DNA of 64,000 nt. Origin: a virus (Duplodnaviria; Heunggongvirae; Uroviricota; Caudoviricetes). Positions 15,746-30,206 of the stretch are shown piece by piece (positions within the stretch are counted from its first letter, which is position 1; each line of letters starts with the position of its first letter). The notes below the pieces were generated by a model, which was not told the origin of the DNA, did not search any database, and saw only the letters and a list, made by a program, of their open reading frames with translations. The position numbers were made by a program, and so were the translations under genes. The stretch lies in the IMG/VR virus record IMGVR_UViG_3300031555_005217, positions 71,047-135,046 of that record; one strand, 5' to 3'.

Positions 15746-16159
15746 TTACTCCTCAACTTTCTGTAATAATTCAGGATTTTCATATATATTACCTATCACT
15801 CTTTTATTCTTTGCTCTAGTAAAAAGTACTGTCTTTTTACCTCTAGAATTCCTTGGACCATCTCCTAAAGTAAACGCTGCATTTCTATTATCATAAGAAA
15901 CTACTCCATAAAATATTTTGTTATAATGATACCCAGAAGAAATAGTATATTCAACTATATCTCCTTCATAGATACCAACGCCTTCCTTATCATACACTCC
16001 AACATATCTCATCATTATGAATTCATTTAAGTAATAAGTTTCAAGATAGAGTTTATTCTTCTTGCTAGGTGCAAATATAAATCCACCATCAAAACTAATT
16101 CTATAAACAGGAACAACTCTATTTTCATCCTTTATATATGCTCTAAATGTATTGACCAT
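15746..16159 (-). CDS. YopX-like phage protein
   Basis: C-terminal GNIYENPELL and overall YopX-family pattern. Confidence 0.5.
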   Translation of the reverse strand: MVNTFRAYIKDENRVVPVYRISFDGGFIFAPSKKNKLYLETYYLNEFIMMRYVGVYDKEGVGIYEGDIVEYTISSGYHYNKIFYGVVSYDNRNAAFTLGDGPRNSRGKKTVLFTRAKNKRVIGNIYENPELLQKVEE

Positions 16160-16392
16160 TATTTATCAACTCCTAAAGTACATAATAATACAATAATTTC
16201 AATCATAAATGATATTGGACAAACTATCAAATAAATAACTATAAGTAAAGACTTACCAAACCAGTTTATATTTTTAAGTTTACTAATATATTTAAGTGTA
16301 GATTGTTGTGTGTAGCAAGAGATTATTAGATGAGCTATTTCTAAGAAAAGTACTAGAAGTGCATAAAGTGCAATAAAATGTGATAATTCCAT
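16159..16392 (-). CDS. small membrane protein
   Basis: Hydrophobic 77-aa ORF. Confidence 0.35.
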   Translation of the reverse strand: MELSHFIALYALLVLFLEIAHLIISCYTQQSTLKYISKLKNINWFGKSLLIVIYLIVCPISFMIEIIVLLCTLGVDK

Positions 16393-16604
16393 TATTCCAC
16401 CTCTTCAAATCTAACTTTAACTATCTGGTACTTTCTAGCATATTGAAAAGGAAATCCTGGAAAACATACTTTATCATATAATCTCTTTTCTGCAACTTCA
16501 ATAGCAGTTTTCTCATTCTTATATAATTTACAATCATAAATATTTTTACTTAAAGTGTTATCTTTACATAGATAATAATCACTGAATTTAACTGCATAAT
16601 ACAT
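16392..16604 (-). CDS. hypothetical small protein
   Basis: Intact ORF. Confidence 0.35.
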   Translation of the reverse strand: MYYAVKFSDYYLCKDNTLSKNIYDCKLYKNEKTAIEVAEKRLYDKVCFPGFPFQYARKYQIVKVRFEEVE

Positions 16605-17530
16605 TACTGTCTCACCTCAGTCTTACGTAATTCATTTATATGTCTGAACATTTCACCAATATCATCTTTTAAAGGGAATCTATTACTTAAAGGAGATAAT
16701 GAGCAAATACTATATTGTTGATTGACGCAATCAATATAACAAGTCATCGATCCATCATCTCCCATAAAATATTGATCCCATTCTTCTTGAGATAATAGTC
16801 TCTTAGCTTCTAATTGCTTTAAAGCTAAATTATCAAAACTTACAACATTAAAATGATTTACCATTTCTTTTAATTCATTATAATAATCTGATTTAAGATT
16901 TTCAACCTCTTTAGAATAATAATTTAATCCTCTTCTAAATTCTTTATAACCTAAAATTAAAACCTTTAAATTATGATCATATAATTTTTTAACTTCTGAT
17001 AAAGGTTGAACTCCATTAATAATATGAATTACTGCATTAGGAAACTTCTTAACTCTTTCAATAAATTCATCTGTAACCTTTACTAATGAAATACCTAAAC
17101 CATAAATTAATTTTTCTCTAACTAACATATCAACTAGTTCAATATATTCATCTCTCATAAAGTGAACTTGATTAATTGTCATGCTTGGAATTAAATGTAA
17201 AGATTTACATTTCTTTAAAAACGGAATTAAATCTGGATGTGTTAAAGGATTACCTCCACCAATAGCTAATTCAGTGTAAGGTAATAAAGTATCCATAAAC
17301 TTTAAATTCATAATATCTCCATGTAACCCATCGGCTGTAGAATTCTCATGGCAAAATGGACAACCCATATCACACATATTTGTAATTTTAATATCCATAC
17401 TTTCTGGTTTTTCAGGAGCAAAGAAATCTAAATCATTAGCTCTTACCTTTGTACCATCATCAAATACTGTTACATTATAATTACCATTTCTATATTTTCC
17501 TAAAATTTTCATATTATTTAGTTCCTCCAA
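16604..17530 (-). CDS. radical SAM domain protein
   Basis: CxxxCxxC motif ITNMCDMGCPFCH and Gly-rich IGGGNPLT. Confidence 0.55.
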   Translation of the reverse strand: MEELNNMKILGKYRNGNYNVTVFDDGTKVRANDLDFFAPEKPESMDIKITNMCDMGCPFCHENSTADGLHGDIMNLKFMDTLLPYTELAIGGGNPLTHPDLIPFLKKCKSLHLIPSMTINQVHFMRDEYIELVDMLVREKLIYGLGISLVKVTDEFIERVKKFPNAVIHIINGVQPLSEVKKLYDHNLKVLILGYKEFRRGLNYYSKEVENLKSDYYNELKEMVNHFNVVSFDNLALKQLEAKRLLSQEEWDQYFMGDDGSMTCYIDCVNQQYSICSLSPLSNRFPLKDDIGEMFRHINELRKTEVRQ

Positions 17531-17843
17531 ACTTTTCTTTGTAATCCTTTTTAGTCATTACATTTTTAATCTCAAAATCATTTCCAATATTATAATACAT
17601 TTCCCATTTTAAATCATCAAAATTACCTTTTTTAATAACCGTATAATCTGACCAATCTTCATTATAAGATATTATTTCGCAATTTTCATAATCAATTACC
17701 TTTAAAGCCCAACCATATAATATTTGATTATCATCTATGCGACCATCTCCTATTTGAAAAATAGAATTTTGCCAATTATTACCTTTAGTATCTTCATATT
17801 TAACTAATCTTATAAAATCATCCCAAATAAAAACTGTTTCCAT
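17514..17843 (-). CDS. hypothetical protein
   Basis: Intact ORF. Confidence 0.4.
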   Translation of the reverse strand: METVFIWDDFIRLVKYEDTKGNNWQNSIFQIGDGRIDDNQILYGWALKVIDYENCEIISYNEDWSDYTVIKKGNFDDLKWEMYYNIGNDFEIKNVMTKKDYKEKFGGTK

Positions 17844-17859
17844 AAAAATACCTCCTACA

Positions 17860-18312
17860 TTATTTTATATCTTTCAAATTCTTTAGTATATCAGATGCTT
17901 TATTAATAAACTTGCAAGGTTGATAGTCATCATCCATATAATAATCATAGTCATAGTCATCACAAGTTATATCAACAAAACCAAAATTAGGATCTATATA
18001 ATAACCTCTTTCTAAATCCTTATCCATTGATCTTTTCAAGCTTTCTTTTGCTTTATCTGCTAATAACTTAGATAATATATCAACTGCCTCTGTATGATTG
18101 ATTAGTGATGTTAATTTTAGTTTATCTAATGGATAAACATTCTCTTTTTTAGAATAAGTTTTATCAGTTATAATTTTAGTAACAATACCTACATAACTTT
18201 CATTGTCAGAAACAATATCTCCAACTTTAACCTTTTCCTTAATTAAATAAGTATATTTTGTGTGATATTTATAATCCCCAAAACTTTGTTTTAAATTAAC
18301 AACATACATAAT
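17860..18312 (-). CDS. hypothetical protein
   Basis: Track ORF trimmed to the internal Met with SD gaggtgg. Promoter motif at 18338-18347 lies upstream. Confidence 0.4.
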   Translation of the reverse strand: MMYVVNLKQSFGDYKYHTKYTYLIKEKVKVGDIVSDNESYVGIVTKIITDKTYSKKENVYPLDKLKLTSLINHTEAVDILSKLLADKAKESLKRSMDKDLERGYYIDPNFGFVDITCDDYDYDYYMDDDYQPCKFINKASDILKNLKDIK

Positions 18313-18337
18313 AACCACCTCATATATTATTTTAAAT

Positions 18338-18347
18338 ATTATACAAT
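18338..18347 (-). promoter_or_regulatory. class-1 promoter-like motif
   Basis: attatacaat; the minus strand reads TTGTATAAT (TG-extended -10-like). Confidence 0.4.
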
Positions 18348-18393
18348 AAACAAAAAATGAAACTAGCGTTTTTACTAGTTTCATTTAAATTTT

Positions 18394-18717
18394 TTATCCA
18401 TCATAACCAAAATATCCGAATGCATGTATTACTTCACCAGATTCGGTTGTGAATGTATCATGAAATACTTCATAGCAATCTCCACCAAAATCTTCCCAAG
18501 TTTGATAACGATAATAATCAACATCTGCTACATCTTCAGCTGATGTTACTTCAGGATGTTTTTGTTGGATTTGTTCTAAGCTAACTAACTCCTCACTATA
18601 CTTATCATACCATAATTCACCATTTTCAAACTTTTCAAATTCGGTACCACTACACATTGTAAGGGTATGAGTGCTGCTTGAATTAGTTTCAAAAACTCCT
18701 CTTCTAATTTGTTTCAT
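18394..18717 (-). CDS. paralog 1 of the FETNSSSTH-leader family
   Basis: N-terminus MKQIRRGVFETNSSSTHTL is shared with three neighbouring ORFs. Confidence 0.5.
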   Translation of the reverse strand: MKQIRRGVFETNSSSTHTLTMCSGTEFEKFENGELWYDKYSEELVSLEQIQQKHPEVTSAEDVADVDYYRYQTWEDFGGDCYEVFHDTFTTESGEVIHAFGYFGYDG

Positions 18718-18736
18718 TTATTAAGTTCCTTTCTTT

Positions 18737-19300
18737 TTAATTTCCTTTATAAAACCACTCATAATCATCTACTTTTGGATTATAGTGTGGATTATCATAA
18801 CTAAATCCCCATTCATCTTCAATAATCTTTTTATCTCTATCCCAGAAACCATGAATAAGGTCATCATTATCATTTCCAGTATAAACTAAACCAGCAAAAA
18901 TGAAATTTAAAACTCTATCATCACTTTCAAAAATATATGATAGAAATTCATCTAGATCTCCAAAATGATCAATATATCCTTCCTCTAAGGATATCCAAGC
19001 ATGATTAGTACCTTCCTCATATACTCTGGTAATAGGTTGTTCTAGATCATAATTAATATTATTTCTATCTAAAATTTCAGTTAATTTTTCTACATAAAAT
19101 TGACTTGGATTTTTATACAGATCCCATAATACACAAGCAGTATATAAATAATCTGCAGCATTTTCTTTATTAAATCCCCAACCAAATTCACCTATTTTGA
19201 AAGAAATATATTTCTTTTTCTTAACATTATTTTTAGGTATTGCTAAAGCGTGAGTAGAGCTACTATTAGTCTCAAACACTTTTCTTCTAATTTGTATCAT
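18737..19300 (-). CDS. paralog 2 of the FETNSSSTH-leader family
   Basis: MIQIRRKVFETNSSSTHAL... Confidence 0.5.
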   Translation of the reverse strand: MIQIRRKVFETNSSSTHALAIPKNNVKKKKYISFKIGEFGWGFNKENAADYLYTACVLWDLYKNPSQFYVEKLTEILDRNNINYDLEQPITRVYEEGTNHAWISLEEGYIDHFGDLDEFLSYIFESDDRVLNFIFAGLVYTGNDNDDLIHGFWDRDKKIIEDEWGFSYDNPHYNPKVDDYEWFYKGN

Positions 19301-19312
19301 ATAATATTCCTC

Positions 19313-19861
19313 CTATCCAGTTATATGACAAAATACAAGTTTTTTATTCTGTAGATCTTCTATAAATTCATAATAAGGTTCATAATTTCTATCACCAAAA
19401 TAAATTGCTCCATATTGGAAGAATTCTTTTAACTCAATATCAGATAAATCCATAAATTTATCTATATCGCCATAATCTCCTTCATGGAATAAATATTGAC
19501 CATCATCTAATAAATAATAACTTTCTTCATCTAATCTTAATTGAAATACCGCGTTAGGAAATAGTTTTTGAAGTCTAACCATTAAACATCTTCCTTCAGT
19601 TAATTCGTTATAATTAGTTTGATAAAACATGCTTAACATATATCTTAGTTTTTCAGTAATAGTTGAAAAGCAGGCATCCCAAGGATTAGTATGTTTACTT
19701 AAAGCTGTTATCTCACTTTGAGTATAAGGTCTTATAACATAATTCATTTCAAATAATGATTGATCGATAGAATAATTTTTCTTATATCTATCTGATTTAA
19801 ATGTAAATGCATGAGTGCTAGAACTGTTTGTTTCAAATACCGATCTTCTAATTTGTTTCAT
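19313..19861 (-). CDS. paralog 3 of the FETNSSSTH-leader family
   Basis: Start set at MKQIRRSVFETNSSSTHAF, the internal Met of track ORF 19313..19903. Confidence 0.5.
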   Translation of the reverse strand: MKQIRRSVFETNSSSTHAFTFKSDRYKKNYSIDQSLFEMNYVIRPYTQSEITALSKHTNPWDACFSTITEKLRYMLSMFYQTNYNELTEGRCLMVRLQKLFPNAVFQLRLDEESYYLLDDGQYLFHEGDYGDIDKFMDLSDIELKEFFQYGAIYFGDRNYEPYYEFIEDLQNKKLVFCHITG

Positions 19862-19871
19862 ATTAATACCT

Positions 19872-20126
19872 CTATGTTCTATATCTGAGTTGTTCAAACT
19901 CAATATTTTTAATTTTATCTATATTTAAATATAATACCCTATCATCAAAATTAAATTTTCTTGATCTTACTTCATATTCCTCTTTAGCAATTGTTATTAA
20001 ATCTCCAACATTAGGAATACCTAAAGTAGTATCCATTTTAGTCTCTATTATAGCATGTCCATATGAGTATCTTAAAATAACATCATTTATATTTACTACC
20101 TTATTACATCTAAAAACGTCTAACAT
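19872..20126 (-). CDS. hypothetical protein
   Basis: Intact ORF. Confidence 0.4.
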   Translation of the reverse strand: MLDVFRCNKVVNINDVILRYSYGHAIIETKMDTTLGIPNVGDLITIAKEEYEVRSRKFNFDDRVLYLNIDKIKNIEFEQLRYRT

Positions 20127-20128
20127 AA

Positions 20129-20785
20129 CTATTCCTCCATTCTATTAAGGATATAATCAATTTTGCCTCTGAGCATTAATAAATCCTCTTTAGTCATTTG
20201 TTGTAGATCAAATTTATTATCAATAAAAACAACTTCATATCCCATACCATTAAGCATTCTACTTAGAAGAACTACATTATCAACTTCTGATGGTTTAGCA
20301 TTTATGCTTAATAAGGTAATACCATTCTTATTTAATGTTATTGGTAGACTGGAAATTAATTGTTCGGTATACATTTCTGTACAATCCCAAGTTTTAAAAC
20401 CATCATCAAGCTCAATCAATTCTGAACTATATAATTTCTTTCCATCAGGACTAAGCTTTTTGATTTTATATAAATTAGGATCTTCTAAACTTTTTAACTC
20501 ACCTTCATAATATATCTTTGCTTTAATTGCACCTGTATCAGGATCCCTAAATTCTAATAAATCACCTTCATCAATTAAATCTAATATGTTATCTGAAGAT
20601 TTTTTAACTTCAACTTTTTGATTATTCCAACCACCAATACTTTCAAATCCTTCATAGGAGTCAAAACAAAACCAATTAGGTTCTCCTGCAGGACTATAAC
20701 TAACTCTATATTGAGAAGTATTAATTATTTCATTGTTAACTGTTAACATATATTTTTTAATTGTAACCATTTTTAAGACCTCCAT
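20129..20785 (-). CDS. hypothetical protein
   Basis: Intact ORF. Confidence 0.45.
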   Translation of the reverse strand: MEVLKMVTIKKYMLTVNNEIINTSQYRVSYSPAGEPNWFCFDSYEGFESIGGWNNQKVEVKKSSDNILDLIDEGDLLEFRDPDTGAIKAKIYYEGELKSLEDPNLYKIKKLSPDGKKLYSSELIELDDGFKTWDCTEMYTEQLISSLPITLNKNGITLLSINAKPSEVDNVVLLSRMLNGMGYEVVFIDNKFDLQQMTKEDLLMLRGKIDYILNRMEE

Positions 20786-20787
20786 AA

Positions 20788-21513
20788 CTAGTGATTATCA
20801 TTATCTATAATAATCATAATATCATCAGAAAATAAATAGGTTTCATATCCAATATTATTTATATGATAAATTAAATTGTATTCTTCTAAACTTTGATGAT
20901 CAATTGAACCAAATCCTGAGAAATGTTCCCAACCTTTGTTGTTTGGATGACCCCATCTAGAATCTACCCAATCATACTTGTGCCAAAATTTATGATTAAT
21001 GGTATTTTTACGACGTCCATCAAAGATGTTATCTAATTCATAATCATTTAGCGTATCATCCCACCAATAATATTTAAACCCTTTAAAGTCAAAGTTACAA
21101 TATTTCTTAAAAAGTTCTTTTAACTCTGTAACTTCAATGGATTCATCTAAAATCTTACAAGCATCTTCCCAACGCTTTTGAGCTTCTTTATCTTCATAAT
21201 CATTCCATAAATAATGATCAGCATAAGATAAATCATTTTTCTTGCGGATATAATTTGGATCTTTCTTATCAGACAATACTTTTAAAGCAATATGAGTCAT
21301 TAAATAATTTAATTTTTCATACCATCTTTTTAATGGAGTTTCTCTTGTCCAATCATATTTACCAAAATTTACTGGAATATAACCTTCTTTATCCGCATAA
21401 TAGTATTGAATTTTATCTGTTGGATCTATTATACTAGGATTTTTACTTCTATATACTAATGCATGTGAACTTGAACTATTAGTTTCAAATACTCCTTTTC
21501 TAATTTGAATCAT
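20788..21513 (-). CDS. paralog 4 of the FETNSSSTH-leader family
   Basis: MIQIRKGVFETNSSSSHAL... Confidence 0.5.
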   Translation of the reverse strand: MIQIRKGVFETNSSSSHALVYRSKNPSIIDPTDKIQYYYADKEGYIPVNFGKYDWTRETPLKRWYEKLNYLMTHIALKVLSDKKDPNYIRKKNDLSYADHYLWNDYEDKEAQKRWEDACKILDESIEVTELKELFKKYCNFDFKGFKYYWWDDTLNDYELDNIFDGRRKNTINHKFWHKYDWVDSRWGHPNNKGWEHFSGFGSIDHQSLEEYNLIYHINNIGYETYLFSDDIMIIIDNDNH

Positions 21514-22363: not shown

Positions 22364-22437
22364 TGGAGCATCCGACCGGATTCGAACCAGTGATCAGAGG
22401 GTTGCGGCCTCCTGCCTTACCGCTTGGCTACGGACGC
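22364..22437 (-). tRNA. tRNA-Cys(GCA)
   Basis: Cloverleaf folded by hand. Acceptor GCGTCCG/CGGATGC, T-loop TTCGAAT, anticodon loop CCGCAAC (C33 is unusual), CCA encoded. Confidence 0.6.
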
Positions 22438-22445
22438 AAATTATA

Positions 22446-22520
22446 TGGCAGTTCCTACAAGATTCGAACTCGTAATATCAGGTCCGTAGCCTGAGGGTTT
22501 ATCCATTAGCCTAAGGAACT
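22446..22520 (-). tRNA. tRNA-Arg(ACG)
   Basis: Anticodon arm TCAGG-CTACGGA-CCTGA, T-loop TTCGAAT. Confidence 0.7.
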
Positions 22521-22524
22521 GTTT

Positions 22525-22610
22525 GGTACCGAAGGTGGGACTCGAACCCACACGTCTATAAGACACCAGTTTCTAAGACTGGCGTGTCTACCTATTCCAC
22601 CACTTCGGCA
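22525..22610 (-). tRNA. tRNA-Leu(UAG), type II
   Basis: Anticodon arm CCAGT-CTTAGAA-ACTGG, long variable arm, A73. Confidence 0.65.
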
Positions 22611-22615
22611 TATTG

Positions 22616-22692
22616 TGGTGGAAATGGGTGGAATCGAACCACCGACCTCAGACTTATCAGGTCTGCGCTCTAACCAACTGAGCTACATTTCC
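22616..22692 (-). tRNA. tRNA-Ile(GAU)
   Basis: D-arm GCTCAGTTGGTTAGAGC, anticodon loop CTGATAA. Confidence 0.75.
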
Positions 22693-22697
22693 AGTTA

Positions 22698-22775
22698 TGG
22701 TCGGAGCAGTCCGATTCGAACGGACGATCTCGTGGTCCCAAACCACGCGGAGTAACCAAACTATCCTATGCTCCG
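22698..22775 (-). tRNA. tRNA-Pro(UGG)
   Basis: Anticodon arm CGTGG-TTTGGGA-CCACG. Confidence 0.7.
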
Positions 22776-22916
22776 AAATTATACTATAATATCTAATTCT
22801 TGAATTTTGGAATAAATTAATAAAATTAAGTCTTCAAAATCAAAATAATCATAATCAAATTTTACTTCAATATCACGTGTTGTAAATTTATCTAATAAAC
22901 ATTGGTTATCAGTATC

Positions 22917-23126
22917 CTATTCTTGTTCAGCGTAGGTACAATCAAGTGTTACATACGGTTCTGAATTAAAAAATTCTATTTTCATAGAGTTAATACAAAA
23001 TCAACTTCTTGGAGAAATTAATTCTTTAACCATTGCATCTACGGCATCAACAATATTATTAATTTCATTATTAATAAGCGTAAATGGATGATTTTGTAAT
23101 GCTAATTTAGATTTCTTTCTATACAT
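22917..23126 (-). CDS. small hypothetical protein inside the tRNA array, with in-frame TGA
   Basis: Hand translation MYRKKSKLALQNHPFTLINN...SPRS-[TGA]-FCINSMKIEFF..., stop TAG. Confidence 0.3.
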
Positions 23127-23149
23127 ATTAATTTATTCCTTTCAATTAA

Positions 23150-23236
23150 TGGCGGAGAGCTAGGGACTCGAACCCTAAAGGCTTTTACACCTGGCGGTTT
23201 TCAAGACCGCTCGACTACCAATTATCACAGCTCTCC
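23150..23236 (-). tRNA. tRNA-Ser(UGA), type II
   Basis: Anticodon arm GCGGT-CTTGAAA-ACCGC, long variable arm, G73. Confidence 0.7.
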
Positions 23237-23244
23237 AATTTAAA

Positions 23245-23265
23245 GTATACCTAATAATTAGGTAT
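23245..23265. repeat. perfect 21-nt palindrome tatacctaat-a-attaggtata
   Basis: Seen directly in the sequence, between tRNA-Ser and tRNA-Thr. Confidence 0.6.
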
Positions 23266-23332
23266 AGAAGTTGCCAACCTTCATTCCTCATCTGTCTAAT
23301 GACTATTTTGTCAAGAGCTTGGCGGACCTTCT

Positions 23333-23408
23333 TGGTGCCGGAAGAGAGATTCGAACTCCCAACCTTCTCATTACAAGTGAGTAGCTCTACCGTTGGAGCT
23401 ATTCCGGC
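23333..23408 (-). tRNA. tRNA-Thr(UGU)
   Basis: Anticodon arm ACTCA-CTTGTAA-TGAGA. Confidence 0.7.
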
Positions 23409-23414
23409 ATTCAT

Positions 23415-23490
23415 TGGGGTGAGGTAAGGGAATTGAACCCTTATTGCAAGAGCCACAATCTTACGTCCTAACCGTTGAACGAACCTCACC
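23415..23490 (-). tRNA. tRNA-His(GUG) with encoded G-1
   Basis: Anticodon loop TTGTGGC, an extra 5' G pairing with C73. Confidence 0.7.
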
Positions 23491-23495
23491 ATATT

Positions 23496-23571
23496 TGGTG
23501 GAGGATGACGGGTTCGAACCGCCGACCCCTTGCTTGTAAGGCAAGTGCTCTCCCAGCTGAGCTAATCCTCC
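23496..23571 (-). tRNA. tRNA-Val(UAC)
   Basis: Anticodon arm CTTGC-CTTACAA-GCAAG. Confidence 0.75.
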
Positions 23572-23828
23572 AAATAGAATAAAATTAAATATATCTTAAG
23601 AGTGTAACATCCTTTGATGTCATGAGAACTTATTACTACATACTGAAGTTATGCATCACTACAATATATAGTTGATATATATGTTCTTTAAGTCAACCTT
23701 ATACTATACTATCACTATTTAAATACCTCTATACAGAGGATCAAGTGATCACTCAATAAAGCCAACTTAACTACAGCGGATTCAGCTAGCTAGTCTGCCC
23801 TGTAGACTTTTACTTTTATTTTAATTTT

Positions 23829-24058
23829 AATCTAAGTCATCTATAACTTTTTTTAAATCATTAAATAAAGTATTTCAAACAATTTTTCTATTCTTATTCT
23901 TATCTGGTTTACTATGAGCAACAGGTCCCTTGTATCTTAGATAATCATAATCAAAATAACTTCCATAATTTTCACCTCATGTATTCTGAAGATAAAAATT
24001 ATTTTTCATAAAAGCTTTTAACTTTCTAAATACTTTTTCTTTTTCTGCTCTCGTCATA
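23829..24058 (-). CDS. small hypothetical protein inside the tRNA array, with in-frame TGA
   Basis: Hand translation MTRAEKEKVFRKLKAFMKNNFYLQNT-[TGA]-GENYGSYFDY... Confidence 0.3.
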
Positions 24059-24082
24059 ATGTAATTTCCTATTTATCTTTAT

Positions 24083-24160
24083 TGGCAGGGGTGGCAGGAT
24101 TCGAACCTACGAAATGTCTGAGTCAAAGTCAGATGTGTTAAGCCGCTTCACCACACCCCT
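24083..24160 (-). tRNA. tRNA-Gln(UUG)
   Basis: Anticodon arm TCTGA-CTTTGAC-TCAGA. Confidence 0.7.
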
Positions 24161-24170
24161 ATTTGCTAAA

Positions 24171-24255
24171 TGGTGGGTGAGGCTGGACTTGAACCAGCAA
24201 TGCCGTTGGCGCCTGATTTACAGTCAGGTGGGGTTACCAATTTTCCTACTCACCC
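24171..24255 (-). tRNA. tRNA-Tyr(GUA), type II
   Basis: Anticodon arm CCTGA-CTGTAAA-TCAGG, long variable arm, A73. Confidence 0.7.
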
Positions 24256-24284
24256 ATTTATGGAGCAGGTGATGTAACTACCTG

Positions 24285-24992
24285 CTATAATTTCTTATCA
24301 TATAACTTATCTAAGTTATTTGTGTTTCTATTTATAAAAACAGGATACTTAGAAGTTATATAATTGAATATTTCGATTAAATCATCATAATGATATAATC
24401 TATAATTGACATTAAGTTTATTCATTGCTGCTACTTTTTCATATACAGGTCCTAAATCTCGTCCCTTTAATTCCACGTAGGTATTAGTTTCAGGTAAATA
24501 GAAATCTGGGTAATATTTATAGGTCTTACCTTTATATTCATAATCAAAAGACTTCTTATTTCTCTCTATCAATATATTATTATCTAAACAATATATTAAA
24601 AAAGCTAGTTCATAAGTTGAATCACATCTGAATCCTTTATATATTCCTTTTTTACCATAAGGTGTGGTATGATTAGGCCCACCAAGATTATGTTCTTTAG
24701 CAGAAATACTGAGTAATTGTCTCTTGCAGTCATCTGAACACGATTTAGATCTTCTTCTAGAGTAGGGAAGTATTGAATTACAGACCAAACAAAATTTAGG
24801 ATTATCTAAATAGATAGCTATCTTATTTTGTAATTTTTCTGAATAGGTATTATTCACGGTCTTACTTCTTTTTAGATTAATCTCTACTGTTTGTTTCCTA
24901 GAGTTGGAACATTTTCGTGAACAGAATTTTCCTGAACCAAATTTGACAAATACTTCTTTGTTACATTTTAAACATTTATATAAATAATTCAT
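24285..24992 (-). CDS. zinc-ribbon + PD-(D/E)xK-like nuclease, copy 1 (homing-endonuclease-like, embedded in the tRNA array)
   Basis: CLKCNKEVFVKFGSGKFCSRKC, then ...YKYYPDFYLPETNTYVELKG (PD...ExK). Start set at MNYLYK with SD ggag. The track N-terminus overlaps a tRNA. Confidence 0.45.
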   Translation of the reverse strand: MNYLYKCLKCNKEVFVKFGSGKFCSRKCSNSRKQTVEINLKRSKTVNNTYSEKLQNKIAIYLDNPKFCLVCNSILPYSRRRSKSCSDDCKRQLLSISAKEHNLGGPNHTTPYGKKGIYKGFRCDSTYELAFLIYCLDNNILIERNKKSFDYEYKGKTYKYYPDFYLPETNTYVELKGRDLGPVYEKVAAMNKLNVNYRLYHYDDLIEIFNYITSKYPVFINRNTNNLDKLYDKKL

Positions 24993-25058
24993 TATATCAT
25001 CTCCATATAATTTAGCGTAAAAATCGAACTGTTTTAAACTACTTGATGATATAATATA

Positions 25059-25132
25059 TGGAGCAGCATACCGGTGCTGCCCCGGTGCCGTCTGCTTGGA
25101 AGGCAGAGGTTCTACTGTTAAACTAATGCTGC
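25059..25132 (-). tRNA. tRNA-Gly(UCC)-like with non-canonical GC-rich T-loop (GGCAGCA); possibly a pseudo- or atypical tRNA
   Basis: Hand fold: acceptor GCAGCAT/ATGCTGC, D-arm GTTT-AACAGTA-GAAC, anticodon arm TCTGC-CTTCCAA-GCAGA, T-arm ACCGG-GGCAGCA-CCGGT, CCA encoded. Confidence 0.4.
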
Positions 25133-25180
25133 ATATAATTAGATGTGGTTCTACCATTGTCCTACACCTGCATATTAATT

Positions 25181-25256
25181 TGGCACACCCTCCAAGACTC
25201 GAACTCGGATCGTAGGCTTAGAAGGCCTATGTTCTATCCAGTTGAACTAAGGATGT
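25181..25256 (-). tRNA. tRNA-Arg(UCU)
   Basis: Anticodon arm TAGGC-CTTCTAA-GCCTA. Confidence 0.7.
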
Positions 25257-25259
25257 ATA

Positions 25260-25335
25260 TGGTGGAACCTCTTGGATTCGAACCAAGATCCGTGGTTCTT
25301 CAGACCACTGCATAGACCAACTTTGCTAAAGCTCC
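25260..25335 (-). tRNA. tRNA-Phe(GAA)
   Basis: Anticodon arm GTGGT-CTGAAGA-ACCAC. Confidence 0.7.
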
Positions 25336-25340
25336 GTTTA

Positions 25341-25415
25341 TGGCGGGAAATAATGGACTTGAACCATTATCTATCGGTTAACAGCCGATTGTTCTGACCT
25401 TTGAACTAATAACCC
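25341..25415 (-). tRNA. tRNA-Asn(GUU) (two U-U mismatches in the acceptor stem)
   Basis: Anticodon arm ATCGG-CTGTTAA-CCGAT, D-arm GTTC-AAAGGTCA-GAAC. Confidence 0.6.
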
Positions 25416-25430
25416 ATATTTTAAAATTAA

Positions 25431-26100
25431 TATTACTTGCAAGAAATAGTAAATGGCCACTTCCTATAAGAATCAAGTAATGTTATATAAACAAGAATAT
25501 CGTGCTTATACCTAGAACACAGTTCCTTATTCTTTTTTAAAAAGACCGATTGTCTCCGCCTAACCACACCATACGGTGCCTTCAATGGCATAGCAAAATG
25601 CTATCCAAAATTTTACATCCTTGCTTAAATAGGTGAAAGAATCCCTCGCCACAAAGTAAGGCGAACAAACGGCTTTGTCTAATTAATAGTAAAAATAACC
25701 TATTGTTAAATCCAAATCAATTATCATCCGATGATGTCTAGTTTGACAATAAACTAGGGAGACTTTTGCAAGTATACTTGGAACCAAGCAGGGAGATGCC
25801 ATAGTGCTTAATTTGTCATTTTGTCAAGTTCAACCACATTTTACCGACTACCACGCAAGGCTCCGGAACTCGCATCCTTCCGCTACGGCTATTCCTATAA
25901 CTCGAATAGTTTTAGACTTTGTTATTATAACCTTTGTCTTTGTTCTCAATAGAGACTCACTAATAAGCTAAACTTATTATCCATAACCCCCGCTTTCGCA
26001 GTATTATGACCTTTGATCTTGTCGTCTTTAAGACGTGCGCTAATAAATATTCATTTATTATCCGTAGAATCCGTTCTCACACAACTACGTCTTTTTTTAT
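25431..26100 (-). ncRNA. large structured non-coding element, copy A (core about 25600-25940), homologous to copy B
   Basis: About 670 nt with no ORF in any frame and locally GC-enriched. The core 25619-25741 and 25833-25935 aligns with 28978-29100 and 29221-29300, with conserved stems (cgcc..ggcg) and variable inserted hairpins. Strand assumed from the flanking tRNAs. Confidence 0.5.
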
Positions 26101-26102
26101 TT

Positions 26103-26189
26103 TGGTGCCCGAAAAGAGATTTGAACTCTTATGCTATTAAGCGCAAGTGCCTAAAACTTGTGTGTCTACCGAAATTTCACCATTCGGGC
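26103..26189 (-). tRNA. tRNA-Leu(UAG) second copy, type II
   Basis: Anticodon arm CAAGT-TTTAGGC-ACTTG, long variable arm. Confidence 0.6.
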
Positions 26190-26194
26190 AATTA

Positions 26195-26281
26195 TGGTCG
26201 CTAGAAAGGGATTTGAACCCTTAATCCTGTAAAGGCGACGGATTTTAAGTCCGTTATGTATGCCAATTCCATCATCTAGCG
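26195..26281 (-). tRNA. tRNA-Leu(UAA), type II
   Basis: Anticodon arm ACGGA-CTTAAAA-TCCGT, long variable arm. Confidence 0.7.
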
Positions 26282-26290
26282 TTATTTAAT

Positions 26291-26367
26291 TGGTGGACTA
26301 GATAGGACTTGAACCTATGACCTACTGATTAACAGTCAGTCGCTCTAACCAACTGAGCTAATGCCCC
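26291..26367 (-). tRNA. tRNA-Asn(GUU)-like; acceptor stem pairs poorly (possible pseudo- or chimeric tRNA)
   Basis: Canonical D-arm GCTCAGTTGGTTAGAGC, anticodon arm ACTGA-CTGTTAA-TCAGT and T-arm, but 5' GGGGCAT faces 3' CTAGTCC. Confidence 0.35.
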
Positions 26368-26396
26368 ATAATGGTGTTATTTAAACACCTATATAA

Positions 26397-27284
26397 CTAT
26401 TCATATAACTGAATAAAATCTTTACCATATTTTTCAATAACATAATCTAAATATGGTTTAATTTCAGTGTAAGTTATTACTTTTATTGGATATTTGAATT
26501 GTTCTATCTTTGCTTTTCATTTATCAGAAGAATAACCCTTAATTTCTACATATTTACCATCTTCTATAAAATCTGGGAAATATTTTAAAGTCTCATCCTT
26601 AAAAGTATACTCAAATCCTTGTTTGTTTCTAATAAAAGGAATATTATGTTCAAGATTATATATTACATATGCTAATTCTCAAGAACTATCACAATAATAA
26701 CCTTTATATCAACCATGTTTACCTAAACCTGAACCTTTTCTATAACCTCCAGGAGTTTTTACTTTAATACTTTTTCCATAATCTGTATGATAAAGACAAT
26801 AAGAACATAATCCTGTTTTTGTATAGTTTCCAATTAATTTTCCACATTCTTTACAGAAAGATACTTTTTTGGATTTTTTGATTTCAATATTATAATCTGA
26901 CTCAATAACTGATTTACGTATCTTCTCTTTTACTTCTTCAGATCTTTCTCTTGAATTAGCACAAGATCTAGAACAGAATCTACCTGATCCAAATTTTTCA
27001 GTCATAACTTTTCCACATTTTTCACATGTGTGTTGTTCTGAGATTCATTCTTGAATCTTACTTTTATTAACTTCAATAAGTTCTAATTTTTTATTTTCTC
27101 TATTCTTATTACATTGGTCTATTAAGTTAGTTCTACGTTCATCTAATTTGATAGTATTTCCATATTTAGCTAACATATGAATTTTACAATGACCTTTATG
27201 TCCATTAAAACTTTGTGAATTATAGAATTTTTTACCACATTCACATAAATAAATATTCTCATAATTAAATGTATTCATAAACAT
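26397..27284 (-). CDS. zinc-ribbon + PD-(D/E)xK-like nuclease, copy 2; a single gene spanning three track ORFs via in-frame TGA codons
   Basis: Hand translation joins 27045..27284, 26709..27005 and the 26400-26708 segment in one frame: ...KIQE-[TGA]-ISEQHTCEKCGKVMTEKFGSGRFCSRSC...KHG-[TGA]-YKGYYCDSS-[TGA]-ELAYVIY...YFPDFIEDGKYVEIKG...; paralogous to 24285..24992. Confidence 0.5.
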
Positions 27285-27314
27285 TCTCCTTTTTATCTTA
27301 CATTTAATTTAGTA

Positions 27315-27352
27315 CAATATTTGGTTTCGGATTTAAGAATTGAACCTATTAA
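27315..27352 (-). other. tRNA 3'-half remnant (T-arm AATAGG-TTCAATT-CTTA plus acceptor 3' strand plus CCA) with no 5' partner
   Basis: Seen directly in the sequence, immediately downstream of the tRNA-Glu-like gene. Confidence 0.35.
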
Positions 27353-27427
27353 ATTAAAATGGTGACGGCTAAGGGTTCCGCCCCCTCCATCCTGGAGTGA
27401 AAGTCCGGTGTGTTCACTAGTTCACCA
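27353..27427 (-). tRNA. tRNA-Glu(UUC)-like with non-canonical GC-rich T-loop (GGCGGAA)
   Basis: Hand fold: acceptor GGCGGCT/AGCCGTC, D-arm GTG-AACTAGTGAA-CAC, anticodon arm CCGGA-CTTTCAC-TCCAG (one C-A mismatch), T-arm GAGGG-GGCGGAA-CCCTT, CCA encoded. Confidence 0.4.
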
Positions 27428-27451
27428 AGCCGCCAAAATAATAAAACTGTC

Positions 27452-27526
27452 TTTAAACTGGTGCTCTAACTTGGAATCGAACCAAGGACTAGACATTACC
27501 ATTGTCTTGTTTTACCTACTAAACTA
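27452..27526 (-). tRNA. tRNA-Thr(GGU)
   Basis: Anticodon arm AGACA-ATGGTAA-TGTCT, T-loop TTCGATT. Confidence 0.6.
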
Positions 27527-27718
27527 AGAGAGCATTCTAAGCTTTTAAGCTTGATTATTAATATTAGATAAAAATACTAACATCATTAAATTTGCAAGAG
27601 ATTTTAAAAATTTAAACATAATGAAAACTCACTCCTCTCTATAAAATAAATTAAAGAGTACGTTGTTTTAAGTTTTCATTTCTGTACATAAATTATGTGT
27701 CACCTCTTATAATATTTT

Positions 27719-27794
27719 TGGATGCGGAGGACGGACTCGAACCGTCGACCTTCGGGTTATGAGCCCGAAAAGCTACCACTGCTACACTCCGCAA
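27719..27794 (-). tRNA. tRNA-Met(CAU), initiator-like (three G-C pairs closing the anticodon stem, weak 1:72 pair)
   Basis: Anticodon arm TCGGG-CTCATAA-CCCGA, U1-A72. Confidence 0.6.
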
Positions 27795-27877
27795 TATATC
27801 CATTTTGAGTTTTTATGAGGTCAAAAGGTTTACTAATGTAAAACACCTCAATTTCATTTCTTAGTAAAAATTTTACC

Positions 27878-28090
27878 TTATGCTAATACTCTACTGATGA
27901 CGAATCTTGTAGTTTCATTAAACTTATATTCAATTACATGTTTTTCTCTAGCATATTCATCTTGTAGATATGCAAATGCATTAAGTTTGCTACACATATA
28001 GTTAAATGCTTGTTCTCTTGTTGCAAACTTCTTTCTTGTAGAATAAGGTACTGAGTTAATAACTCCTTGTAATTTATAATATTTTTTCAT
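27878..28090 (-). CDS. small basic hypothetical protein
   Basis: Track ORF trimmed to MKKYYKLQG, which has a strong SD ggaggcagataaag. Confidence 0.45.
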   Translation of the reverse strand: MKKYYKLQGVINSVPYSTRKKFATREQAFNYMCSKLNAFAYLQDEYAREKHVIEYKFNETTRFVISRVLA

Positions 28091-28165
28091 CTTTATCTGC
28101 CTCCATAATTTATAGTTTATAATGGTCATTTCGGACCAAGACAATAAAGATATTTAACATCACTA

Positions 28166-28241
28166 TGGTGGAACTAGTCGGGATCGAACCGACGGCCTTC
28201 TGCGTGCAAAACAGACGCTCTCCCAGCTGAGCTATAGCCCC
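28166..28241 (-). tRNA. tRNA-Ala(UGC) with G3-U70
   Basis: Anticodon arm TCTGT-TTTGCAC-GCAGA. The acceptor stem carries the G3-U70 wobble that is the Ala identity element. Confidence 0.7.
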
Positions 28242-28250
28242 ATTTATTTT

Positions 28251-28338
28251 TGGTACCTCGGGCCGGAGTCGAACCGGCACGCCTTTAAGGGGCATGGGAT
28301 TTTAAGTCCCACGTGTCTACCTATTCCACCACCGAGGC
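28251..28338 (-). tRNA. tRNA-Leu(UAA) second copy, type II
   Basis: Anticodon arm TGGGA-CTTAAAA-TCCCA, long variable arm. Confidence 0.65.
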
Positions 28339-28343
28339 ATTTA

Positions 28344-28418
28344 TGGTGTGTCCGCTGGGACTTGAACCCAGGACCTCCTGATTAAAAGTCAGGTGCTCTA
28401 CCACTGAGCTACGGACAC
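28344..28418 (-). tRNA. tRNA-Lys(UUU)
   Basis: Anticodon arm CCTGA-CTTTTAA-TCAGG. Confidence 0.75.
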
Positions 28419-28421
28419 ATA

Positions 28422-28498
28422 TGGCGGTCTGAACGGGACTTGAACCCGCGATCTCCAGTGTGACAGACTGATATGTTAACCAACTACACCACCAGACC
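28422..28498 (-). tRNA. tRNA-Asp(GUC)
   Basis: Anticodon arm TCAGT-CTGTCAC-ACTGG. Confidence 0.75.
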
Positions 28499-28499
28499 A

Positions 28500-29760
28500 T
28501 TTCAAGGAACATTATAGATCCAATCTAAAACGTTCCAGTAATCTCCTTCTACCATATGTAGATGAGTTAATTATAACTGAACTCGCTATTTACGAATTCG
28601 GGACTCTTTCTACGTTCGTAGATGAGTATAACAAAATTATTTTGTCTTTGCTAAATAAATATATACCTTGCTTGTGGTGAAGGTACCAACGCCTCGGTGA
28701 ACGGACGATTCTCATTTTATTTCAATGAATCAGTTGATCAGACCGATATAATCAAGACCGATACTATAACCAGAAAAGTCTTTCGGAATAACCCGTAACT
28801 TAATGCGCATTACCCTGCTTACTCTTTCCTAATGCTAGCTTTTAGTACTTAAATTCTTTTCAACAAGCCTTTGTATTTTCTTTAACTTTGTCTTTTTGCT
28901 TAATCTGCTTTCAGGGTAAGCGCCCGTCGTACTTTTTGGCCTTCAGGTATACGAAATTTACCTGTTTACTTCTACAGCTTGCTTAAATAGGTGAAGCACT
29001 CATACGCCACAGGAGTAAGGCGATCCAAACGGCTTTATTTAATTAATGGTAGATATAACCTATTGTTAAATCTAAATTAATTATCATCCGATGAGGTCTA
29101 GTTAAATTCATTTTAATTCACATATAAACACTCTTGTTTATACTTCCTAAGGCATTTTTGGCTAAAATATGCTAACCTCTTATAATTAAACCAATTTTAA
29201 TTATAAGTGAACCTAACATCACCCACATTTTACCGACTTTACGGCTATTCCTTTACCTCGAATAGTTTTAGGAATCCTGTCATTATAACCTTGTTTGGAA
29301 TAATACCAAAATCTCTACCGATTTCGATGTTATTGTTACAACTTTCGTTGCCGAGCTAATCTAATTTCAGCATATCAACCTAATATTCAAAATTAAGTGA
29401 CGACATTATTAGGTTATCGCTATTCAGTCTACGTAAGACCTTTCACCCTTTATCAATTTTTCTTTCGAGTAAAAATGATAAAACTCTTGTGACAATTTCT
29501 GCCCTCACTACATAAATATATTATGCATCCTATGTCACCGGTCTCCCACTACATAGCCTTTATAATTGCTAGTTATCTCAATTAAGAGACTCTTTATTTA
29601 AGATTTAGTCTTCGGTAGGTTCATCATTACTAGCACTGTGAATTCTACCACCAAGGTTTGAACAATTAGTTTGCTAATCGGTTCTCCACTTCTTAGTTGG
29701 AAATCCGCCTCGCCAGCAGCACCACCACGAGCAGGTTTGTTCTTGGTGCCATATAATATA
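28500..29760 (-). ncRNA. large structured non-coding element, copy B (about 1.25 kb; core 28978-29300 homologous to copy A)
   Basis: No ORF of 60 aa or more in any frame across 1.26 kb and locally GC-enriched. Blocks gcttgcttaaataggtgaa..cgccaca..agtaaggcga..aaacggcttt, ccgatga.gtctag and cattttaccgact..acggctattcct.ta.ctcgaatagtttta are shared with copy A. Confidence 0.5.
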
Positions 29761-29769
29761 CAATATTTT

Positions 29770-29801
29770 TAAATAAAAAAGGACGGCATCTTAAGCCATC
29801 C
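29770..29801 (-). terminator. rho-independent terminator (stem GGATGG/CCGTCC then T-run on minus strand)
   Basis: ggacggcatcttaagccatcc preceded on the plus strand by aaaaaa. Confidence 0.55.
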
Positions 29802-29829
29802 TTAAATTTATTTTTAAGTTTGGTTAAGA

Positions 29830-29942
29830 TTTAAGTAAATATAAAATTTCAAAATAATATTCTTGTTCAGGACAATCATACGCAGAGATGGTAGATGTAT
29901 AGTTAAATTTATTAATTTGTTTATTAAGATTAACAACTAATA
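29830..29942 (-). CDS. small hypothetical protein
   Basis: ATG at 29942 with SD ggagaatg. About 37 codons, which is below the track threshold. Confidence 0.25.
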
Positions 29943-30110
29943 ACTTTTTCATAATCAATACATTCTCCTTACTTTAAAATTTTATTCAATATAATTTAGC
30001 GTTTCGAAATCAAACAATTTATTAAAAAACGTCGTCTTAATTCCATACAGGTCTATTAAGATCTTTTGTTTATTTGTCCCATTCATTAAGGTTAACGTCG
30101 TTTTATTTAA

Positions 30111-30206
30111 TGGCAGGGGCTACAGGATTCGAACCCGTACCCACGGCTTTGGAGACCGTTACCCCAGTTTTGAAGACTGGTGTGCTAACCGTTACACTAA
30201 GCCCCT
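30111..30206 (-). tRNA. tRNA with anticodon UCA (predicted UGA decoder / suppressor), 96 nt, type II long variable arm, G73
   Basis: Hand fold: acceptor AGGGGCT/AGCCCCT, D-arm GTGT-AACGGTTA-GCAC, anticodon arm CCAGT-CTTCAAA-ACTGG, 25-nt variable arm with internal ACGG/CCGT stem, T-arm ACGGG-TTCGAAT-CCTGT, G73, CCA encoded. Confidence 0.7.

Follow-up and report, generated by a model that had tools for sequence, protein, structure and literature searches.

Phage proteins with an invariant N-terminal TNSSS hairpin are paired with a radical-SAM enzyme

The stretch of DNA analysed here, in full length called the window, comprises 64,000 nucleotides of a tailed phage genome (positions 71,047 to 135,046 of IMG/VR record IMGVR_UViG_3300031555_005217) and carries four genes, P1 to P4, whose products begin with almost the same peptide. 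P1 to P4 are paralogues of a widespread phage superfamily, named here the TNSSS-hairpin proteins, which includes phrog_28997. Members of this superfamily are almost always accompanied by a gene for a radical S-adenosylmethionine (rSAM) enzyme, and the rSAM enzyme together with at least one TNSSS-hairpin protein makes up a self-contained two-gene module, the hairpin being the one element that is kept throughout. An earlier note, made from the sequence of the window, had compared the shared peptide with the capsid-targeting or cleavable leaders of the T4 internal proteins. According to our analysis the TNSSS-hairpin proteins are very probably an obligate partner family of the rSAM enzyme, and not carriers of such a leader.

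Linkage of TNSSS-hairpin and rSAM genes

Among loci from IMG/VR and metagenomes which were anchored on a TNSSS gene, an rSAM homologue was found in the flank and on the same strand in 83 of 86. The corresponding figure for GTDB loci was 63 of 78, and most of the misses were short contigs. When IMG/VR loci were anchored on the rSAM gene, with rSAM peptides as the only queries, 78 of 79 carried at least one open reading frame (ORF) with an N-terminal TNSSS motif. A close rSAM homologue and a P2-type protein were present in exactly the same GenBank phage records (24/24), which include Lak megaphages and Microcystis phage Ma-LMM01. Across 146 rSAM loci the TNSSS family was represented in all 146, the next commonest neighbour family in 20. 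No third conserved gene of the module was found among these 146 loci, and degenerate variants of the motif, which were looked for beside the rSAM gene, were not found either.

The TNSSS genes were located upstream of the rSAM gene in 126 of 136 non-redundant loci. A single rSAM gene was accompanied by one to nine paralogues, the commonest set being one long and one short form (76/136 loci). In a related contig, L001, the gene order is P4, P3, P2, P1, rSAM, while L003 has the order long, short, short, rSAM and L007 the order long, short, rSAM; in L005 the rSAM gene overlaps a long-form gene, and in the Lak-C1 megaphage the rSAM gene is followed by five paralogues. The pair in Ma-LMM01 consists of gp130 (TNSSS) and gp128 (rSAM), members of PHROG families 28997 and 16999, respectively. 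The largest expansions seen, with eight to nine tandem TNSSS paralogues, were on contigs from metagenome-assembled genomes of Fibrobacter and Prevotella (L166 and L167); the rSAM enzyme of L166 has only 31.5% identity to that of the window. A weak rSAM match in Dulem virus 40 was set aside, as it belongs to a different rSAM cluster without a TNSSS partner.

Large phages infecting gut Bacteroidota and Firmicutes carry the module, as do many gut phage contigs of 100-230 kb, phages of cyanobacteria, thermophilic phages, and a culturable Salmonella phage. It was also present, presumably within prophages, in contigs from cultured isolates (L162, L164, and L120; Eubacterium plexicaudatum ASF492, Acetivibrio ethanolgignens, and Lachnospiraceae MD308), and the module-bearing contigs of the cultured Lachnospiraceae genomes are likely prophages.

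Remote pairings and a natural fusion

The pairing is retained at 25-33% rSAM identity in Rhodothermus phage RM378, Thermus phage phiYS40, and Salmonella phage Arash. RM378 has p108 (rSAM) with p106 (MKAFIRFGLSTNSSSSHS...FGWEF...CDHES...GGNDN), and in phiYS40 gene 162 (MRRLKEVRLTSMTNSSSASMLVIPSD..., containing LTSMTNSSSAS) overlaps the start of rSAM gene 161. In Arash both components are contained in a single polypeptide of 476 amino acids, gp146c, which is annotated as ‘methyltransferase’. Its residues 1 to approximately 170 correspond to the long form, MYLTQIRYGFATNSSSSHS (FATNSSSSHS)...GYGW...GYIDHES...GGNDN, with 30.5% identity to Ma-LMM01 gp130 (E 1e-5), and residues from approximately 195 to 476 to the rSAM enzyme, where Pfam Radical_SAM matched at 196-308 with 51 bits, above the cut-off. 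The only stretch strictly invariant across the proteins of the window, RM378, phiYS40, and Arash is T-N-S-S-S. Residues E10 and H17 are not universal: Glu is replaced by Ala or Ser in Arash, RM378, and phiYS40, and His by Ser in phiYS40. Judged from sequence, the rSAM/TNSSS pairing is ancient.

The partner enzyme

The rSAM gene of the window is situated 0.9 kb downstream of P1 on the same strand. The two small ORFs between them, variable filler, are missing at this place in L001, where the rSAM gene follows directly after P1. Translation of the rSAM gene begins at the ATG at 17512, with a GGAGGA ribosome-binding site ahead of it, and not at the TTG at 17530, where the mechanical ORF call, which is too long, had placed the start. 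The product matched Pfam Radical_SAM with E 1.8e-5 and phrog_16999 (‘Fe-S oxidoreductase’) with E 3.3e-48. It has a single cluster motif, CDMGCPFC, followed by GGGNPL and a conserved C-terminal half with SFDNL and MGDDG. The only cysteines conserved in 33 homologues were C53, C57, and C60 (CxxxCxxC), with no conserved auxiliary cysteines, and searches of Pfam and NCBIfam for a SPASM, twitch or RRE (RiPP recognition element; RiPP, ribosomally synthesised and post-translationally modified peptide) domain gave no match above noise.

No close solved relative of the enzyme was found in the PDB, the matches to PqqE spanning only the generic rSAM core. The matches to viperin (NCBIfam) and pVip (PADLOC) likewise covered only the first 100 or so profile positions, i.e., the generic core, and a viperin-like (pVip) assignment was rejected, since no full-length match including the C-terminal nucleotide-binding extension was obtained. 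The match to NrdG2 (E 0.007) was over the generic core as well, with 15.7 bits against a cut-off of 131.

The four paralogues and their shared peptide

The coordinates of the paralogues are given in Table 1. All four ORFs start with M[KI]QIR[RK]xVFETNSSS[ST]H, the individual N-termini being MKQIRRGVFETNSSSTHTL (P1), MIQIRRKVFETNSSSTHAL (P2), MKQIRRSVFETNSSSTHAF (P3), and MIQIRKGVFETNSSSSHAL (P4). When the window was translated in all six frames, FETNSSS turned up at four places and no others, each of them the start of one of P1 to P4, and it was absent from 200 shuffles. That four ORFs share one N-terminal peptide, as the earlier note had stated, was thereby confirmed; the ending ...HAL which it had included in the peptide is exact for P2 and P4 only, and not for P1 and P3. 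Its description of the arrangement was also correct. P1 to P3 are directly tandem, with intergenic gaps of 19 and 12 nt, and P4 lies beyond two unrelated ORFs of 84 and 218 amino acids. Transcription proceeds in the order P4, P3, P2, P1, and each of the genes has a Shine-Dalgarno sequence of its own. P3 really begins at the ATG at 19861, which has an AGAGG ribosome-binding site 5' of it, and not at the TTG at 19903. The mechanical ORF call was too long here, and a start at this TTG would overlap the 84-aa ORF.

Any two of the paralogues agree in the amino acid at 14-16 of the 19 leader positions, but in the codon at only 8-11. The serine codons of the leader alternate between the TCN and AGY classes (TCA-AGC-AGC, AGT-AGC-TCT, AGT-TCT-AGC, and AGT-TCA-AGT across the paralogues). 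Since the residues were kept while the serine codon classes were switched, the leader has been under old purifying selection at the protein level, and the codon usage rules out a DNA repeat or recent gene conversion as the source of the shared peptide.

Family membership and homology of the bodies

The superfamily was defined by the N-terminal motif R-x3-h-x-T-N-S-S-S-x-[HS], beginning within approximately 10 residues of the initiator Met, and P1 to P4 all carry it. The motif Phe stands 8-10 residues past the Met in 188 of 200 family ORFs, and the motif begins at protein residues 1-5 in nearly all of 150 listed representatives. Four further motifs, in fixed order, characterise the long form, Gx[FY]G[WY], a (D/K)YL(Y/M)T helix, G-x-h-D-H, and (G/D)-N-D-N. 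All four are found in P2 and P4, P3 keeps the helix with degenerate DH and NDN positions, and P1 does not have the set.

P2 contains, in this order, RxxxFETNSSSxH, GEFGW, DYLYTA, GYIDH, TGNDN, and YKGN. It has more than 1443 full-length homologues of approximately 190 amino acids, and it matched phrog_28997 (‘unknown function’) over the full length with E 2.4e-15. The invariant residues of the P2 family span the whole chain (R5, F9-S15, H17, G40, W41, Y51, Y53-A55, D111, H112, G142-N145, N170, K185, and N187). P4, with the motifs FGKYDW, EKLNYLMT, GSIDHQS, and IIIDNDNH, has 66 homologues, and 18 contigs, with lengths of up to 191,569 bp, encode an identical protein. The P4 subfamily and its distant full-length relatives of 157-276 amino acids have the hairpin, FGxYGW, EKLxY, G-x-IDHQS, and IIDNDN in the same order. 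P3, for which only nine homologues were found, keeps the hairpin and the EKLxY helix, while the DH position reads L-F-H-E and the NDN position GDRN (GDR[ND] in its family). The P1 subfamily, the short form of approximately 100-140 amino acids, is well populated, with more than 1,000 full-length relatives, of which 394 representatives are at E<=1e-10. P1 ends with ...GEvIhAFGYFGYDG (...GE-x-I-x-AFGYYGYDG in the subfamily), and the half with DH and NDN is absent.

Further body types with the same hairpin were found in other genomes, namely proteins with FGRSPF...GTDD...DGDEYC, proteins with INHQL...FGRD, and a Cys-rich type of 230-320 amino acids. The hairpin is thus the motif by which this superfamily, with its several types of body, can be recognised, and the bodies of P2, P3, and P4 are not unrelated cargo. 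The Cys-rich subfamily (GTDB contigs L138-L140, L147, L161, and L168-L170) has a C-terminal C..YF..GCL..C.CGFE.Y, a motif which suggests a metal or Fe-S site, and is often represented by two tandem copies beside the rSAM gene.

The four proteins had been described as diverging immediately after the leader. Pairwise identity indeed collapses at this point, and the hidden Markov model of the P2 family matched nothing but the leader in the other paralogues, so that body homology came out only in profile-profile comparison, where P2, P3, and P4 proved to have homologous bodies. The P2 family aligned with the P4 family over the whole length (99.7%, E 2.6e-26). When the first 22 residues were removed, the P2 and P4 bodies still aligned in hhalign (93-96%, E 2.7e-7 to 7.7e-9, up to 113 columns), and so did the P3 and P4 bodies without the leader (probability 83-87%, E 4e-6 to 1e-5), in register. 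The match between the P3 and P2 bodies, with the leader removed, was not significant in hhalign. The core of the original observation, one invariant N-terminal peptide on proteins with a strongly divergent remainder, is upheld by these comparisons.

Predicted structures and database searches

The AlphaFold2 model of P2 had a mean predicted local distance difference test score (pLDDT) of 85 and a predicted template modelling score of 0.84, and the model of P1 had a pLDDT of 87. Residues 1-20 were modelled as a beta-hairpin in both proteins, with strands 3-6 and 16-22 in P2 and 2-9 and 15-23 in P1. Though the hairpin is the most conserved part, it was the least confident block in the two independent models (pLDDT 58 and 73), the rest being mostly at 80-98. 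Such low values would fit an exposed, partner-dependent loop. The P2 model had no match among PDB folds, and its sole match in BFVD was an uncharacterised Myoviridae protein. For the E...DH...NDN residues, a Toprim-like, a metallophosphoesterase-like, and an alkaline-phosphatase-like reading were considered and dropped for want of fold or motif support, as was a FlhB/YscU-like autocleavage.

Searches of Pfam, NCBIfam, and PADLOC with P1 to P4 gave no match, and PHROGs returned only the family of ‘unknown function’. PDB sequence searches with single proteins, as well as with profiles of the P2 and rSAM families, gave nothing meaningful. We found no paper on the motif or joining the two families, and literature searches on Ma-LMM01 with radical SAM and on phage radical-SAM enzymes gave nothing relevant. 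These results agree with the previous remark that the family appears uncharacterised. A close annotated phage genome for the window was not found either, the sole near match at the DNA level being a tRNA.

Genomic setting

The locus belongs to a replication/tRNA block of the genome, between genes for primase, DnaB, ligase, and phosphoesterase on one side and, directly upstream of the paralogue cluster, an array of tRNA genes on the other (Table 1). One of these tRNAs, 96 nt long with the anticodon TCA, was called tRNA-SeC by ARAGORN. Opal-suppressor or stop-codon-recoding tRNAs have been reported in some gut phages, and this tRNA could be one of them. Compared with L001, a related contig of 208 kb, the ORFs lying between P4 and P3 have been rearranged (L001 9594-10995). 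In L001 this place is taken by a different 84-aa ORF, a membrane ORF with homology to window positions 16159-16392, and the 218-aa ORF of the window has a relative of 135 amino acids upstream of P4. Near the module, the related large phage contigs L003, L005, and L001 carry a set of genes for tRNA repair and translation, namely Thg1, RNA ligases, a KTI12/PNK-like kinase, RlaP nucleotidyltransferase, and ribosomal protein S21, and the same three contigs also carry ThyX and dCMP deaminase.

Table 1. Features of the module and its surroundings, in positions of the window
Feature	Position	Strand	Description
rSAM enzyme	16604-17512	minus	302 aa; Pfam Radical_SAM and phrog_16999 matches
Two small ORFs between P1 and rSAM gene	17514-18384	minus	109 aa and 174 aa; variable filler
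P1	18394-18717	minus	107 aa; short-form TNSSS-hairpin protein
P1 hairpin-coding segment	18661-18717	minus	first 19 codons
P2	18737-19300	minus	187 aa; canonical long-form member
P2 hairpin-coding segment	19244-19300	minus	first 19 codons
P3	19313-19861	minus	182 aa; divergent long-form member
P3 hairpin-coding segment	19805-19861	minus	first 19 codons
Two unrelated ORFs between P4 and P3	19872-20785	minus	not conserved parts of the module
ORF between P4 and P3	19872-20126	minus	84 aa
ORF between P4 and P3	20129-20785	minus	218 aa
P4	20788-21513	minus	241 aa; long-form member with an insertion of ~60 aa
P4 hairpin-coding segment	21457-21513	minus	first 19 codons
tRNA array	22364-30206	minus	23 tRNA genes
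tRNA with anticodon TCA	30111-30206		96 nt; ARAGORN call tRNA-SeC

Possible role of the hairpin

We infer that the hairpin is the part of these proteins which engages the rSAM enzyme, and this applies to the physical docking as well as to the chemistry at the loop. In the mechanism that we favour, the first 20 or so residues would form a strand, the loop F-E-T-N-S-S-S-x-H, and a second strand, and it would be due to the contact with the enzyme that every paralogue has kept this element. The flexible T-N-S-S-S loop would dock in the active site of the rSAM enzyme, where the 5'-deoxyadenosyl radical would alter it chemically or activate it, and in this way one enzyme could serve several client proteins which share a short invariant motif. 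In the long forms, P2 and P4, the matured loop would work jointly with the conserved DH and (G/D)NDN residues, and P1, as the short form, and P3, as the degenerate one, would represent variants among the clients. A client model is suggested because a single rSAM gene pairs with many paralogues, because small polar residues and not metal ligands are absolutely invariant, because the hairpin is kept both where DH and NDN have been lost (P3) and where the C-terminal half is absent (P1), and because the hairpin is modelled as loop-like and with low confidence. By analogy, it may also draw on the precedents of the anaerobic sulfatase-maturating enzyme (anSME) with its sulfatases and of the glycyl-radical activases. 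The former serves many sulfatases, and a glycyl-radical activase serves its clients. The full explanation, a two-component module with this mechanism, has somewhat less than an even chance in our estimate, and the specific proposal that the TNSSS loop is a client site modified or activated by the rSAM enzyme is put forward tentatively.

Several points weigh against this explanation. The enzyme has only the canonical CxxxCxxC motif and therefore no SPASM or twitch domain. Such a domain is typical of rSAM enzymes that modify peptides or proteins, anSME among them, and the glycyl-radical activases do without it as well; the lack of auxiliary clusters argues against a two-electron oxidation of the anSME type. 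A fusion like that in Arash would more usually join subunits, or enzymes acting one after the other, than an enzyme with its substrate. Moreover, the DH and NDN/DGDE residues of the long forms resemble the metal site of a separate enzyme, in which case the hairpin could be a catalytic loop. The low pLDDT of the hairpin is weak evidence, and the body of P1 had no significant similarity to the other paralogue bodies in hhalign. Finally, most loci were retrieved via patterns which contained the motif, so that its invariance is partly built in; the set anchored on rSAM peptides and the three remote phages ease this bias.

Some of these points lead to another reading, in which the TNSSS proteins are partners but not substrates of the rSAM enzyme, i.e., subunits, adaptors or enzymes of the next step in a pathway, and the hairpin docks, or serves as a catalytic or ligand-binding loop, without being modified. 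The paralogues would then supply the enzyme with different substrates or process its product, and the loop may bind phosphate or metal together with DH and NDN. The fusion of the long form with the rSAM enzyme in Arash is a Rosetta-stone pattern of the kind typical for subunits or consecutive steps. The conserved polar residues follow predicted strands (FETNSSS after strand 1, GYIDH after 100-105, and TGNDN ending 138-142), the swaps in other subfamilies are conservative, as would be expected of an active site (IDHQS to GTDD, DNDN to DGDE), and the regular set of one long and one short form suggests distinct, non-redundant roles. However, P3 and several subfamilies are without DH and NDN, and P1 is without that half of the protein, yet all have kept the hairpin. 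The best candidates for metal ligands, E10 and H17, are not universal, whereas T-N-S-S-S is; up to nine paralogues per rSAM enzyme would be unusual for fixed subunits, and no fold relative backs any known class of hydrolase or transferase. We consider a role as non-substrate partners a serious though somewhat doubtful alternative. An improbable one is a self-processing loop, in which T-N-S-S-S would be autocatalytic, either by Asn-mediated cleavage as in the NPTH loop of FlhB/YscU or by formation of a Ser-derived pyruvoyl group, and the rSAM enzyme would be linked through a shared pathway. The invariant Asn-Ser, located not far from the N-terminus in the loop that joins two strands, is compatible with it, and there is a local likeness to the hhhTN-PTH-hAh of FlhB/YscU-type autocleavage loops, which can be taken as a lead only; the constant adjacency or fusion of the rSAM enzyme is left unexplained.

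The reading which we regard as the least probable of all, and by a judgement close to rejection, is the one originally proposed, in which a capsid-targeting or cleavable leader directs diverse cargo into the virion for injection. A constant N-terminal peptide on divergent proteins is what such a leader would look like, and V-F-E in the motif superficially resembles the hydrophobic-x-Glu sites of T4-type prohead proteases. It has not withstood the closer comparison, however, as the bodies are homologous (P2 and P4, E 7.7e-9; P4 and P3, E 4e-6), P1 alone being unmatched. The peptide is modelled as a hairpin integral to the domain, and conservation (TNSSSxH) does not stop at the putative cut site. 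The four genes have their place in the replication/tRNA block, not among structural genes, and the near-obligate linkage to the rSAM gene, as well as the fusion with it, have no place in a packaging model. Indirect evidence comes from Arash, in which 116 proteins were listed as particle-associated (PMC10585845, Table 2); Gp143, Gp149, and Gp151 are in this permissive list, but the fused Gp146 is not. The alternative of a processing tag, which had been mentioned beside it, survives in an altered form, as the peptide may be recognised or modified by the rSAM enzyme.

Returning to the client reading, its most far-reaching version would make the TNSSS hairpin the acceptor of a new rSAM-catalysed protein modification or activation, for example oxidation, epimerisation, cross-linking or radical generation, which arms fast-diversifying phage effectors, one enzyme serving up to nine clients. 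This version is more speculative than the client site as such. If true, it would represent a new enzyme-client system, present chiefly in large phages and prophage-like contigs, with a logic like that of sulfatase maturation or of the activation of glycyl-radical enzymes. The motif, the predicted fold, and the pairing appear to be undescribed, while rSAM enzymes with dedicated protein partners are already known, and usually mark unusual chemistry. Two abundant ‘dark-matter’ families of phages, the hairpin proteins with more than 1,000 clusters and the rSAM enzyme labelled ‘Fe-S oxidoreductase’, are thus merged into one testable module. An rSAM enzyme that is new, near-universal in a class of large phages, and associated with an invariant five-residue loop in up to nine clients would be of interest to enzymology and to phage-host biology. 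Arash, which grows on Salmonella Typhimurium and has the fusion, and the prophage-like copies in cultured Lachnospiraceae offer experimental entry points.

Comparison with known systems

P2 and the rSAM enzyme of the window are members of PHROG 28997 and PHROG 16999, bioinformatic clusters without an assigned function or a curated name, and no literature record linking the two was found. Like the T4 internal proteins, the TNSSS-hairpin proteins are several small phage proteins with a short shared N-terminal peptide. Unlike them, they have homologous bodies, are encoded in a non-structural block, have an obligate rSAM partner, and have a fused relative which was not found in virions. RiPP systems (PqqA/D/E, sactipeptides, and ranthipeptides) offer another parallel, with conserved N-terminal recognition, a variable rest, several precursors, and an adjacent rSAM enzyme. 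The TNSSS clients differ in being folded proteins of 100-320 amino acids, with an invariant part that is polar and loop-like, and no RRE/PqqD, SPASM or twitch domain was detected in our searches. Membership among the RiPP rSAM maturases was rejected on these grounds, the partners having confident AlphaFold2 models.

The system of anSME (AtsB, ChuR) and its sulfatases has in common with the module an rSAM gene beside one or many paralogous folded clients, which carry a short Ser- or Cys-containing motif near the N-terminus, and the sulfatases also have conserved Asp/His/Asn metal ligands. The sulfatase motif C/S-x-P/A-x-R is absent from the TNSSS alignments, and the rSAM enzyme of the window does not have the SPASM domain with two auxiliary [4Fe-4S] clusters, so the module was not assigned to sulfatase maturation. 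Nor was it assigned to the glycyl-radical enzymes and their activases (PflA/PflB, NrdG/NrdD, and GrcA/YfiD). The TNSSS proteins have neither RVxG[FWY] nor a glycyl-radical barrel, their conserved glycines are those in Gx[FY]G[WY], their loop is at the extreme N-terminus and not near the C-terminus, and the NrdG2 match of the enzyme was far below the cut-off. The likeness to these pairs is in the architecture: a single-cluster rSAM enzyme of approximately 250-300 amino acids is encoded beside its protein clients, small stand-alone clients exist, and the only element which the clients have in common is a short invariant loop that flips into the activase.

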